DNA of 18,156 nt from an uncultured archaeon (GCA_964534625.1 CAZHRF010000026.1:3013-21168); one strand, 5' to 3'. Positions 14,580 to 18,105 are shown, counted from the stretch's first letter. The notes: a model not told the origin generated them from the letters alone. Numbers and translations are program-made.

Positions 14580-15857
14580 ATGTCATTACCCAGTTTTGAC
14601 TCTTTTTCTTTAGCAGACACACTTGGTAACCACTTGTCTTTAATGTATACCTATCATTTGGGTCTTATTCGTAACCAACGTCTCATGTATAATTCTTTTA
14701 TTCCCCGGTTTCAAGCCCAGATTCTTAAAAATATTCTTTACGATCTTCCTTCTTGTTCTACGAATCAACAAGAGATGTCCACTCCTCATCTCCTTAAACT
14801 TCTAGTTAATCTTAAGCCCCAGTATACTTATCCTTACCTCGAAGAAAGTTCTTTTGAATATCCATATGATTCTTTTAATGATAGAGCCACCTTAGCCTTT
14901 TCTTTTGGTAAAGACAGTCTTCTTACGTTATTTTTAGCTCAAGAGTTACACATAGATGTTCAACCTGTTTATATTATCGAACACAGTATGCACTATGAAT
15001 ACAAGAACAAGATTAAATTAATCTCCCAATTCGAAAAAGAGCAAGGTCTAAAAACCCACATTGTTGATAATACACTTTCTCTTCTTCGTGATCCTAATCA
15101 TCTTCATTGTTCAGTTGATCAAGCTGAGTTGTCTTGGGCTACACAAAACACCCAATATTCTTTTCTCCTGCTTACCTATGCTCGTTTACATGGTTCATCT
15201 GAAATTTTATTTGGTAATGAATATACTACTAATACTGTATACATGAATCGAGATGGTTTTGAAGCCAGTCCCTGTTTTGATCAATCTTCTTTATGGACCA
15301 ATGAAATATCAGCTATGACGAAAGAATTTACCCACGATAAAGTTGGTGTTAGTTCGCTCATTGAACCTTTTACTGATATTATTGTCATGGCTACTCTAAC
15401 TCATCGTTATCCTGCTTCCATTAAATACATTATGTCTTGTTTCGGTGGAAATCAGGGTAAATGGTGTCACAATTGTTCTATTTGTACTAAAATGTTTTTA
15501 ATGTTAGTAGCGTCGGGTATTGACCCCAAATTAGCTGGATTTGAAAGAGACTTATTAACAAATCATAATGCTCACTTCTTTTCCATCTTTGGGGGTAGAA
15601 GTGAGTATCAATATCTAAATACAGATACTGCTTTTAATGAGCAACTTTTCATGTTTGAGTTGGCATATAAGAGAGGTAACAGAAGTGATCTTACTCTGAA
15701 AGCTCACGCATTATTCATTAAGGGAGGTTATGATTTCGATTCACTCTATAGTTTTTTCATTCCTTTCAAATCTCCCATAACCTTACAAAAACAAGATCAA
15801 ATCAATCAAATTAAAGAAATTCATCAAGAGATAGAAGACCATGTTTTCAAAATATAA
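14580..15857 (+). CDS. PP-loop (adenine nucleotide alpha-hydrolase) protein, MurL peptide-epimerase / QueC-like
   Basis: AFSFGKDS PP-loop; ILFGNE; SSLIEPFTD; SC-x7-WCHNCSIC Cys cluster followed by MFLML. This order and the protein length match MurL-like proteins (GGKDS...SNE...SLLRP...SC...WCGxCPKC) better than the shorter QueC. Confidence 0.7.
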   Translation: MSLPSFDSFSLADTLGNHLSLMYTYHLGLIRNQRLMYNSFIPRFQAQILKNILYDLPSCSTNQQEMSTPHLLKLLVNLKPQYTYPYLEESSFEYPYDSFNDRATLAFSFGKDSLLTLFLAQELHIDVQPVYIIEHSMHYEYKNKIKLISQFEKEQGLKTHIVDNTLSLLRDPNHLHCSVDQAELSWATQNTQYSFLLLTYARLHGSSEILFGNEYTTNTVYMNRDGFEASPCFDQSSLWTNEISAMTKEFTHDKVGVSSLIEPFTDIIVMATLTHRYPASIKYIMSCFGGNQGKWCHNCSICTKMFLMLVASGIDPKLAGFERDLLTNHNAHFFSIFGGRSEYQYLNTDTAFNEQLFMFELAYKRGNRSDLTLKAHALFIKGGYDFDSLYSFFIPFKSPITLQKQDQINQIKEIHQEIEDHVFKI

Positions 15858-15881
15858 AATACAAAAAGGATGGTATAGCCA

Positions 15882-16985
15882 GTGTTTGTAGACCCAGGAA
15901 ATACACCCTTAATTAAATCCAAACTACTTTCTAGTTTGTTTGCTATCCCTGATTTATACTATAAACTCGAAGGTTCTAACCCAACAGGTACTCACAAAGA
16001 TAGAATCGCTAATGGCATTTGTCGTTATGTTAAAAAGAAAGGTAAAGATACTGTTGCTGTTGCTACTTGTGGTAATTACGGTTTAGCAGTAGCTTATTAT
16101 GCTAAAGCTTACGACTTGAAATGTGAGGTTTATATTCCTGAAGGTTATCACAGCAAGAGGTTAATAGATATTGTTGGATTAGGAGCAAGCATTCATTTTA
16201 TCCCTGGCAAATATGAGCAAGTTGTTAAATATAGTGCAGAAATAAGCGCCAATAATAATTGGTTTAATGCCTCGCCTAATAGTAAAATTGTTCGAGCCAT
16301 ATCTGTTTTTCAGTATAGCAACATTTCAAAAGAACTCATGCAACAGATACCTGATGTAGATTTCATTGCTGTTCCTGTTAGTAATGGTACAACTTTTGCT
16401 GGTATTTATTATGGCTATTACAAAGAATTCAAAAAAGGTAATCTACCTCATCTGCCTGTTTTCATTGCTGTTTCTACTTCGCATGGCAACCCAATTATTT
16501 CTAGTTTAAATAAATCTATAAGTAAGATTGAAGTTTTGGATCCCTTTACTCTCAAAGAATCTCAAGTTAATGAACCTTTAATCAGTTACGAGCCTTTTGA
16601 TGGTCAAGAAGCGTTAGATATTCTCAACTCTACTAAAGGGTTTGCTTTCAAAGTTTCCGATAATCAAATGATTCATCTTTCTAAATTGCTCTATGATGTA
16701 GAAGGATTAAGTGTTCTTCCCGCCTCAGCTAGTTCACTTGGTGCTATTCAGTTATTAACTAAATCCAATCCTAGTTTGAGTAACAAACGCTTTGTTTGTG
16801 TTTTTACTGGTCGAGGGGGAGTTCAAACTCGTGTTTCAAACACTTCTAGAGTACTTTCTGCTATTTTTGAAGGTAGAAATAACATAAATGGTAAAGAAAC
16901 ATCAAAAAATGGTCAACTAACAAAAACTTCCAATGAAGAAGTAAGAACTGCTACGCCCCTATGGGAAAAAAAACTATTACTATAG
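15882..16985 (+). CDS. Fold-type II PLP-dependent enzyme, threonine-synthase-like
   Basis: GNTPL, KLEGSNPTGTHKDR (PLP lysine), ATCGNYG, VPVSNGTTFAG, EGLSVLPASA and VFTGR motifs; GTG start. Confidence 0.88.
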   Translation: MFVDPGNTPLIKSKLLSSLFAIPDLYYKLEGSNPTGTHKDRIANGICRYVKKKGKDTVAVATCGNYGLAVAYYAKAYDLKCEVYIPEGYHSKRLIDIVGLGASIHFIPGKYEQVVKYSAEISANNNWFNASPNSKIVRAISVFQYSNISKELMQQIPDVDFIAVPVSNGTTFAGIYYGYYKEFKKGNLPHLPVFIAVSTSHGNPIISSLNKSISKIEVLDPFTLKESQVNEPLISYEPFDGQEALDILNSTKGFAFKVSDNQMIHLSKLLYDVEGLSVLPASASSLGAIQLLTKSNPSLSNKRFVCVFTGRGGVQTRVSNTSRVLSAIFEGRNNINGKETSKNGQLTKTSNEEVRTATPLWEKKLLL

Positions 16986-17037
16986 AGATTAAAAAACACA
17001 TTCAATTAACAAATAAATATAATTAAAGAGGTTATTC

Positions 17038-18105
17038 ATGACAGATAGAATTAAAGTTGCTTTAATATGCAATCAACGAATAGAACATAATGACTTTGAA
17101 ATGGAATATGATCCTGAGCATACCATTGCTTCCATTCTTCAAGCTTTGAACAATTATGGCTATGATACAGTTTTTATCAATGCTTCTTCTCCTGATCTAG
17201 TTAGTCGATTGATAGAAGAAAAACCAGATATTGTATTCAATCGTTCTGAAGGTTTCATTTACATGCGTAATAGAGAATCTTTAATCCCAGCTATTCTCGA
17301 ATCGCTACAGATTCCTTTCGTAGGCGCGGATGTCTTGGGCACAGCCATTGGTCAAAATAAGAAGGTAGCTAAAACTTTAGCCTCTTCTTTGCTCATTCCT
17401 ACTCCCCAAGATTATTTTTTGGATCCTTATACTTTAGACGAGATTTTAGATCAGCTGAAACAAGACCTTGAGAAGGGTAAAACTTCTTTTCCTTTTGTGC
17501 TTAAGCCTGTATACGAAGGCTCAAGTTTTGGTATTAAATTAGTTTACACGTTTGATGACTTGTTTACAAGTGCTACTGACTATATATCTAAAACTAACAA
17601 ACCTATTTTGCTTGAAGAATTCATTGCAGGTGATGAATATAGCGTTGGTTTGATTGGTAATGGAAAGGAGTTGAAACTTTTACCTTATCTACGAATAAAA
17701 AGAGAGTGTTTTACTCAAGGTGACTTTATATTTGACAGTCACGCTAAATCTCATGATAGCCTTGAGTATTATGAATGTCCTTCCCATCCTGAGACACACA
17801 TTGACCAACACCTTCGAGAATATGCTACTATCCTCTTCCGATCTCTTTATTGTTTTGATTTTGCTAGAATAGATTTTAGGATCAAAGATGGTAAGCTCTA
17901 TTTTCTTGAAGTTAATCCTTTACCAGGTTTGGATTATCATGTGTCTAATAATGATATCAGTTTTTACCCTTTCATGGCTGTTAGAGGAGGATACACTTTT
18001 GATTCGCTTATTCATGCCATTTTGTTAGCTGCTATCAAACGATATCCCGATTTATATGCAAGAACAATGAAAGTTATGCCAAAATACTGGAAAGAAAATG
18101 AATAA
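17038..18105 (+). CDS. ATP-grasp ligase, D-Ala-D-Ala ligase-like family
   Basis: PDIVFNRSEG, IPFVGA...NKKVAK, VLKPVYEGSSFGI, LEEFIAGDEYSVG and ARIDFR...FLEVNPLPG motifs. GAGGT RBS 5 nt upstream. Confidence 0.9.
   Translation: MTDRIKVALICNQRIEHNDFEMEYDPEHTIASILQALNNYGYDTVFINASSPDLVSRLIEEKPDIVFNRSEGFIYMRNRESLIPAILESLQIPFVGADVLGTAIGQNKKVAKTLASSLLIPTPQDYFLDPYTLDEILDQLKQDLEKGKTSFPFVLKPVYEGSSFGIKLVYTFDDLFTSATDYISKTNKPILLEEFIAGDEYSVGLIGNGKELKLLPYLRIKRECFTQGDFIFDSHAKSHDSLEYYECPSHPETHIDQHLREYATILFRSLYCFDFARIDFRIKDGKLYFLEVNPLPGLDYHVSNNDISFYPFMAVRGGYTFDSLIHAILLAAIKRYPDLYARTMKVMPKYWKENE

Follow-up and report, generated by a model that had tools for sequence, protein, structure and literature searches.

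A conserved gene cassette combining a MurL-like PP-loop enzyme, a Ddl-like ligase, a PLP enzyme and an acetyltransferase in an Asgard archaeon

The locus and its archaeal host

We analysed an 18,156-nucleotide stretch of DNA from an uncultured archaeon (GCA_964534625.1; contig C26:3013-21168, hereafter referred to as the window). Near the 3′ end of the window lie three genes, which encode, in order, a PP-loop ATPase related to the peptide epimerase MurL (gene 1), a threonine-synthase-like enzyme dependent on pyridoxal phosphate (PLP; gene 2) and a divergent ATP-grasp ligase of the Ddl type (gene 3; Table 1). As the initial annotation of this region had described, the three genes are co-oriented and separated by 24 nt and 52 nt, respectively. 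Genes 2 and 3 are each preceded by an AGGA/GAGG-type motif resembling a ribosome-binding site. The same annotation had regarded these genes as a three-gene unit. They are indeed real and adjacent, but the unit has a fourth member, a GNAT acetyltransferase gene located outside the window, about 350 nt downstream of gene 3. The four genes are hereafter referred to as the cassette.

Table 1. Positions of the cassette genes (window coordinates, except for gene 4)
Feature	Position	Strand	Description
Gene 1, MurL-like/QueC-fold PP-loop ATPase	14508..15857	+	ATG open reading frame (ORF) 14580-15857, 425 aa (P0001)
Gene 2, threonine-synthase-like fold-type-II PLP enzyme	15882..16985	+	367 aa (P0002), GTG start
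Gene 3, divergent Ddl-like ATP-grasp ligase	17038..18105	+	355 aa (P0003), ATG start
Gene 4, GNAT acetyltransferase	contig C26:21469-21987		172 aa; beyond the window end

The conserved coding region of gene 1 appears to begin about 72 nt upstream of the annotated ATG, near position 14508. The in-frame segment 14508-14579 (24 codons) translates to KKTIKVSYNCAEKFNLSVNDTHYA, which aligns with the N-terminus of the homologue P0005 (66% identity); the alignment to the family profile starts at the same point. No ATG, GTG or TTG occurs within this segment. A GAGGT motif occupies 14501-14505; a rare start may be provided by the ATA codon at 14517. The true start of gene 1 is probably such a rare codon, or else the start codon was mis-sequenced.

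The host genome (3.37 Mb in 120 contigs, 89.8% complete) contains an archaeal small-subunit (SSU) rRNA, which scored 1332.7 bits to the archaeal model. The metagenome-assembled genomes (MAGs) reached by a phylum-level scan carried the NCBI labels Thor-, Hermod-, Heimdall- and Borrarchaeota, and one of those labelled Heimdallarchaeota belongs to the same class as the host. The host is an Asgard archaeon of the Heimdall group. The G+C content of contig C26 (32.5%) matches that of the whole genome (32.3%), and a second genome of the same family (G039) has the identical cassette gene order together with the identical upstream membrane-protein gene; we therefore assign contig C26 to the archaeon, as the initial annotation had suspected. 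In Pfam scans, the rest of the contig showed no domain-level taxonomic marker. Mur ligase genes, which that annotation had marked as worth looking for, were represented by no match to Mur_ligase_M in this nearly 90% complete genome.

Relationships of the four proteins

Gene 1, whose PP-loop reads SFGKDS, had MurL (NF041275) as its top NCBIfam match, at 19.9 bits (E 2e-4) and thus below the equivalog cut-off of 700; across 44 members of the gene 1 family, the best match to the MurL model had an E-value of 3.3e-12. The score to Pfam QueC (PF06508) was 13.1 bits (E 0.068), under the gathering cut-off of 22, and PAPS_reduct gave a sub-threshold match. No Asn_synthase or glutaminase domain was found in gene 1 at E-values up to 0.1. 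We compared the gene 1 family by hhalign with four actinobacterial MurL orthologues, which scored 302–474 bits to NF041275. The comparison gave a probability of 97.3% and an E-value of 2e-11 over 206 columns (residues 99-327), as opposed to an E-value of 0.045 for the comparison with the host's own QueC. The two families have 21 conserved positions in common, including GKDS, NE, S259, R276, SCF and WCxxCxxC. The relationship to MurL proposed in the initial annotation is upheld by these results, as a remote likeness.

We modelled gene 1 with AlphaFold2 (AF2) from a 19-sequence alignment and obtained a confident model (pLDDT 91). The closest solved folds, over residues ~100-316, were QueC (3bl5; Z 14.8, 191 residues aligned, root-mean-square deviation 3.1) and Cap9 (Z 14.4), followed by ThiI, LarE, TilS and NAD synthetases; TtuA, QatC and a nitrile synthetase were also among the structural matches. 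Invariant in the gene 1 family are G110, K111, D112, S113, E214, Q235, S259, R276 and the cysteines in C287-x8-C296-x2-C299-x2-C302. Gene 1 is predicted to have a QueC fold with a putative four-cysteine metal site. With QueC and Cap9/QatC, gene 1 has in common the PP-loop, the C-x8-C-x2-C-x2-C spacing and the best-matching fold; unlike QueC, it is twice as large, carrying extra N- and C-terminal domains. We also considered gene 1 as a QueC and rejected this identification, because the Pfam score is below the cut-off, the host has a separate true QueC (C1:194566-195243, 179.4 bits) and the hhalign E-value is only 0.045. Sequence comparison thus places gene 1, with its QueC-type fold, as a remote sister of MurL; it is neither a MurL nor a QueC. 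A search for long fused forms of gene 1 (901–2570 aa) found none, which is weak evidence. A predicted complex of P0001 and P0003 had a score of 0.00, which gives no verdict, and we used it neither way.

To our knowledge, no ATP-driven peptide epimerase other than MurL has been characterised, and MurL is known from one job, in bacterial wall synthesis. It requires ATP and Mg and releases AMP (PMC5808125, PMC8788868), and its inversion of the L-Glu at the end of an N-acyl dipeptide runs from L to D only (PMC5808125).

Gene 3 matched Dala_Dala_lig_C with an E-value of 1.1e-29 (103.9 bits), and its nearest sequences in the PDB were Ddl enzymes (E 5e-22). The host genome has no other strong Ddl-type gene. 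Its scores were below every Ddl cut-off (144.6 versus 243 bits for PRK01372 and 131.7 versus 245.65 bits for TIGR01205, both NCBIfam). The EGSS motif, the omega-loop Lys and the catalytic Arg/Asp/Glu/Asn are retained, alignable with Y. pestis Ddl and invariant in the gene 3 family. We take the omega-loop Tyr216 and the N-domain Glu15 motif of E. coli DdlB to be substrate-site elements. In gene 3, the equivalent of Tyr216 is Ser, a 6-residue insertion precedes the equivalent of Ser281, and the N-domain failed to align with Ddl, having invariants of its own (N12, R14, E23, D25, T29, N68, R69, E71, R79 and E80). As judged from these alignments, gene 3 is a divergent Ddl-type ATP-grasp enzyme with an intact catalytic set.

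Gene 2 matched PALP (E 1.3e-51) and scored 329.5 bits to NF004996/PRK06381, above the curated cut-off of 266, which was passed in none of 14 control genomes. The host genome has no further PRK06381 member. Its predicted PLP lysine is Lys39; the lysine motif NPTGTHKDR and the PVSNGT loop are retained, and TCGNYG replaces STGNTS. Its score to the thrC model TIGR00260 was 93.5 bits, below the cut-off of 167.1. Alignment with the ThrC proteins of B. subtilis, Aquifex and M. tuberculosis showed the phosphate-site motif NPxRxEGQK to be absent. The existence of a separate canonical thrC, another point raised by the initial annotation, was confirmed, as two thrC-family genes elsewhere in the host genome pass the cut-off. 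Because of the low score, the missing motif and these two other genes, we rejected gene 2 as a threonine synthase. As a side observation on PALP-family matches, those at G000:C19:8336-9355 and G000:C35:4178-5197 were identical in E-value and in their 465-aa frame, which suggests that the region is duplicated or was assembled twice.

Gene 4 has the acetyl-CoA loop HGKGYG. The cassette GNATs of the host, of a spirochaete and of an Asgard contig had only generic or sub-threshold matches among NCBIfam models and PDB sequences. All parts of the cassette belong to known superfamilies.

That the cassette consists of housekeeping genes (threonine synthase, QueC and a cell-wall ligase), or lies on a bacterial contaminant contig, is scarcely credible in the face of these data. 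The name given to NF004996, ‘threonine synthase’, and the presence of the cassette in bacterial MAGs would fit such an explanation. It is contradicted by the two other genes passing the thrC cut-off, the true QueC elsewhere and the lack of a Mur ligase match, by the occurrence of the cassette in only 38 of 400 Asgard genomes, and, as to contamination, by the agreement in G+C content and by the same-family genome with the same unusual gene order and membrane-protein gene.

Conservation of the cassette and a second context of its PLP enzyme family

A word-indexed protein search retrieved 18 relatives of gene 1, and an exhaustive profile search of the family retrieved 1184 representative clusters at E ≤1e-3, 180 of them at E ≤1e-30. 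The Asgard genomes containing gene 1 (38 of the 400) belong mostly to one family; in the family of the host it is present in only 2 of 31 genomes, one of them the host itself. The MurL-like, Ddl-like, GNAT and PALP genes were adjacent in all of the 18 Asgard genomes sampled and on three metagenome contigs. Across 185,579 species genomes, relatives of gene 1 were found at 279 loci, and we read gene content and lineages from the best 80 of these. Among them, the four-gene set was complete at 62 loci, and at 11 more three genes were present with the GNAT not detectable by BLAST. The carriers among these best 80 loci are Asgard archaea, many Bathyarchaeia, Nitrososphaeria, DPANN archaea and Spirochaetia, the last including a complete 4.3-Mb chromosome. 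Recurrence of this set in dozens of genomes puts the arrangement far beyond chance. Whether the gene combination is conserved elsewhere had been left to a synteny search in the initial annotation, and these counts answer in the affirmative; the archaeal setting it emphasised holds for the host, but the cassette as such is not confined to archaea. As it had also stated, the combination seems to be undescribed: our literature search turned up no description of it, or of MurL-like proteins outside murein synthesis.

The MurL-like, Ddl-like and GNAT genes always run in the same direction, whereas the position and strand of the PALP gene differ between loci. Three separate assemblies of Bathyarchaeia have the Ddl-like and GNAT sequences in one clean open frame, and from this fusion the ligase and the GNAT would be expected to work together. 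DPANN variants lack PALP and GNAT but combine two Ddl-like genes with either one or two MurL-like genes, so that the pairing of MurL-like with Ddl-like genes is what stays constant as the core of the cassette. These variants are carried by Woesearchaeota and Nanoarchaeia (L004:4263-9398, L064:30-3771, L136 and L139) and take the form of either two Ddl-like ligases with one MurL-like protein or a tandem MurL-like pair. On contigs L004 and L005, which represent one DPANN organism, a lysine-2,3-aminomutase-type radical SAM (S-adenosylmethionine) gene lies just upstream; the variant in L064 begins at the contig end. Genes for LemA and an M48 peptidase adjoin the variant in L004 and L064.

In a quick tree of the MurL-like proteins, Bathyarchaeia were intermixed with Asgard clades, which indicates horizontal transfer, and the host copy occupied a long branch with its same-family relative. 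The copies in a Krumholzibacteriaceae MAG (L088) and an Actinomycetota MAG (L103) nest within Bathyarchaeia with branch lengths of 0.03–0.05; these contigs are probably mis-binned rather than products of transfer.

The four genes have no conserved fifth companion at the cassette loci, and PADLOC found no defence-system match for any of the four proteins. Both results bear on the idea that the cassette modifies a macromolecule, such as a protein terminus, a tRNA base or a surface glycan, for which the RimK/LysX ATP-grasp enzymes, TilS and Cap9/QatC provide precedents. The structural neighbours of gene 1 include enzymes acting on a protein N-terminus (Cap9, QatC) and on tRNA (TilS, ThiI, TtuA), and its N- and C-terminal domains, with no function assigned to them, could accommodate such a role. 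We nevertheless consider macromolecule modification very improbable: no carrier protein, glycosyltransferase or small conserved ORF accompanies the cassette, and a PLP amino-acid enzyme, a Ddl-type ligase and a GNAT typify small-molecule amino-acid chemistry.

The PALP family extends beyond the cassette (1719 matches). In Thermoplasmatota, the PALP gene is followed by a DUF1611 (DgcN-like) gene, and in Neolewinella and Balneola by a DUF1611 gene and then an enolase-superfamily MR_MLE gene. With NCBIfam models, the DUF1611 neighbours were DgcN-like (154–173 bits), and the MR_MLE neighbours matched L-Ala-D/L-Glu epimerase best (223–232 bits) and also DgcA (137–143 bits), all of them below the equivalog cut-offs. 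A PALP orthologue was present in 20 of 401 Bacteroidota genomes, with a DgcN-like gene adjacent in 19 of the 20. The enolase-superfamily epimerase gene came next wherever the fetched DNA reached that far, namely at 10 of the 19 Bacteroidota loci and on two further contigs. These Bacteroidota trios of PLP enzyme, DgcN-like protein and epimerase (L149:5001-8192, L150:5001-8293 and L153-L171) are apparently uncharacterised. DgcN is a D-glutamate N-acetyltransferase, and DgcA is an N-acetyl-D-glutamate racemase (PMC10845958, PMC11747546).

In a FastTree tree of PALP proteins, the cassette-linked and DgcN-linked members interleaved. The spirochaete cassette PALPs were nested within the Bacteroidota DgcN-linked ones (support 99), and the host PALP grouped with those of Thermoplasmatota (support 98). 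One PLP family thus serves two unrelated sets of partners. Each set comprises an N-acyltransferase together with a relative of epimerases that act on N-acylated residues or on the C-terminal residue of dipeptides. The exchange looks like non-orthologous replacement, with the DgcN-like protein and the epimerase standing in for the GNAT and the MurL-like enzyme. The strongest indirect case for epimerisation by the MurL-like enzyme, and for acetylation of the same class of substrate by the GNAT, comes from this replacement between two contexts. By analogy, this context would tie the PLP family to the stereo-inversion of N-acyl amino acids, not to a particular beta- or gamma-replacement reaction. 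The synthesis of a non-standard amino acid, which the initial annotation had inferred for the pathway, is unproven as a role of the PLP enzyme; the interpretation given there is, as a whole, partly supported.

The likeness to the DgcN/DgcA system lies in its logic of N-acylation followed by epimerisation, found also with the L-Ala-D/L-Glu epimerases, and in a neighbour of the same PLP family; it is a likeness of logic, not of descent. DUF1611 and MR_MLE are not homologous to the GNAT and PP-loop proteins of the cassette, and the genes annotated in the window and in its downstream flank include neither a DUF1611 acetyltransferase nor an enolase-superfamily racemase. DgcN/DgcA, moreover, uses no ATP and has no ligase, and the characterised system is catabolic. 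This last property raises the alternative that the cassette salvages or degrades D-amino acids or D-peptides from bacterial necromass, by acetylating them, inverting D to L and feeding the PLP enzyme. Such a role would suit the DgcN-like and DgcA/AEE-like partners of the PLP family, whose characterised kin serve the use of D-Glu and the recycling of murein peptides (PMC10845958), as well as the carriers, which are sediment heterotrophs, and the binding of D-amino acids by canonical Ddl enzymes. We regard it as distinctly unlikely, since two ATP-consuming steps, one of them by a bond-forming ligase, together with the use of acetyl-CoA, would be costly and illogical for breakdown. Furthermore, the cassette has no conserved deacetylase, peptidase or transporter to accompany it, and MurL, the only characterised relative of gene 1, works from L to D only (PMC5808125).

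A candidate biosynthetic pathway

The explanation that we favour, and of which we are about half convinced, is that the cassette is a self-contained, horizontally mobile unit whose product is a small N-acetylated peptide or amino-acid conjugate, assembled independently of the ribosome and with its terminal residue inverted. This proposal starts from the gene families, the conservation of the cassette, the homology to MurL and the parallel context of the PLP family described above. The substrates, the order of epimerisation and ligation, and the choice of epimerisation over amidation are what we infer. ATP-grasp enzymes form amide bonds via acyl-phosphates, GNATs transfer acetyl groups from acetyl-CoA, and PP-loop enzymes adenylate a carboxylate or carbonyl. 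In the proposed pathway, the PLP enzyme would supply or process an amino acid entering it, and the GNAT would acetylate a free alpha-amino group from acetyl-CoA. The Ddl-like enzyme would join an amide bond via an acyl-phosphate, converting ATP to ADP and phosphate, and the MurL-like enzyme would adenylate the carboxylate of the N-acylated residue, converting ATP to AMP and pyrophosphate. In peptide chemistry, activating an N-acylated residue at its carboxylate classically leads to racemisation through an oxazolone, and such a route would account for the acyltransferase that always accompanies the epimerase. As its end product, the pathway would yield an N-capped, protease-resistant dipeptide containing a D-residue, which might serve as a solute, a signal, an antimetabolite or a surface building block.

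The nearest characterised counterpart is the MurD2/MurL system of Xanthomonas oryzae, an alternative route to D-Glu in peptidoglycan synthesis (PMC5808125, PMC8788868). There, too, a ligase adjoins a PP-loop-type enzyme, and MurL, with which gene 1 has the core motifs GKDS, NE, SCF and WCxxCxxC in common, uses ATP and releases AMP in acting on the C-terminal residue of an N-acylated dipeptide. The cassette differs in that its ligase is an ATP-grasp enzyme of the Ddl type instead of a Mur ligase, that the host genome has no UDP-MurNAc pathway, that GNAT and PLP partners are added, and that the hosts are mostly archaea. In its general form, the proposal would mean that murein-less archaea and some spirochaetes possess an ATP-spending, MurL-type route to D-residues in N-acetyl peptides, which involves neither ribosome nor racemase, inverts the terminal residue of an N-acylated amino acid or of a dipeptide freshly joined by the Ddl-type ligase, and has in evolution been interchangeable, around one PLP enzyme, with the cofactor-free pair of DgcN and an enolase-type epimerase; to this general form we give somewhat less than even credence.

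Several points weigh against the proposed epimerisation pathway. The closest solved folds to gene 1, QueC and Cap9, belong to enzymes that make amides or nitriles, not epimers. The likeness to MurL is remote, at 19.9 bits against a cut-off of 700, and the hhalign alignment covers residues 99-327 only. Gene 2 lacks the phosphate-site motif of ThrC. The argument from exchanged partners draws on gene neighbourhood and on a FastTree tree, our trees being quick ones, and the carrier genomes, being kin, are not independent counts. An apparent fusion of MurL-like and Ddl-like sequences in genome G364 (a frame of 803–829 aa) proved to be an artefact, with XXXX at a gap of 10 N and read-through of the spacer; the gap lies at L061:9284-9293 (= L083:7182-7191).

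The first of these points leads to a further alternative, in which the same cassette operates with a PP-loop enzyme that amidates, or forms a nitrile or another amide, to yield an N-acetyl dipeptide amide. The model for such a product is N-acetylglutaminylglutamine amide (NAGGN), an osmolyte that is reportedly made by Ngg, a protein combining GNAT and ATP-grasp domains, and AsnO, a PP-loop amidotransferase. The cassette resembles this pathway in its combination of a GNAT, an ATP-grasp ligase and a PP-loop enzyme, and the Ddl-GNAT fusion found in some cassette lineages parallels the domain pairing of Ngg. In addition, the nearest structures to gene 1 are those of QueC, which converts a carboxylate to an amide and then a nitrile, and of Cap9/QatC, which form an amide to a protein N-terminus, with NAD and nitrile synthetases also matching. 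Unlike AsnO, gene 1 is MurL/QueC-like, not Asn-synthase-like, and has no glutaminase domain; the cassette ligase is of the Ddl type, the PLP enzyme is extra, and neither an AsnO-type glutamine amidotransferase gene nor any other amidotransferase partner is conserved in the cassette. By sequence, the gene 1 family is far nearer to MurL than to QueC, and the parallel PLP context has an epimerase and no amidotransferase. Many of the carriers come from peat, soil and freshwater, according to their MAG record names, which is not an obvious setting for an osmolyte. On balance, we consider amidation unlikely and retain stereo-inversion of an N-acetylated product as the favoured role.

The cassette thus brings together a large uncharacterised sister family of MurL (the 180 clusters at E ≤1e-30) with a fixed set of partners in Asgard archaea, Bathyarchaeia and spirochaetes, and it points to a small peptide, probably containing a D-residue, in abundant sediment microbes. 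The link to DgcN-like proteins and enolase-type epimerases offers a testable hypothesis for three families, namely the PRK06381 PLP enzymes, the MurL-like proteins and the Ddl-like proteins. If the favoured explanation is true, the MurL fold would have a second natural function, and archaea a new class of D-amino-acid metabolite. The four proteins are small and soluble-looking, which makes reconstitution in vitro feasible.

The remainder of the window contains genes of other kinds. Positions 3040-4416 (+) and 4550-5926 (-) encode convergent paralogous polytopic membrane proteins of 458 aa, which are 34% identical, start with MKRIxSLDxLRG and have no Pfam or NCBIfam match. A homologue in G039 (L045:4396-5793) lies ~2 kb upstream of the cassette, and these proteins may be lineage-specific companions of the cassette, for instance a transporter or a membrane acyltransferase. 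A 1030-aa ORF at 7380-10472 and the ORFs at 6150-7160, 11090-12305 and 13126-14076 likewise had no Pfam or NCBIfam match. Within 10534-12305, a PIN-domain gene (10534-11079) is followed by two unassigned ORFs on the same strand that overlap each other, and this trio may be toxin-antitoxin or defence-like. At least four large TPR-repeat proteins are encoded on the 43-kb contig, one in the window (241-2817) and others at C26:28874-31135, 35552-37609 and 37758-39200.

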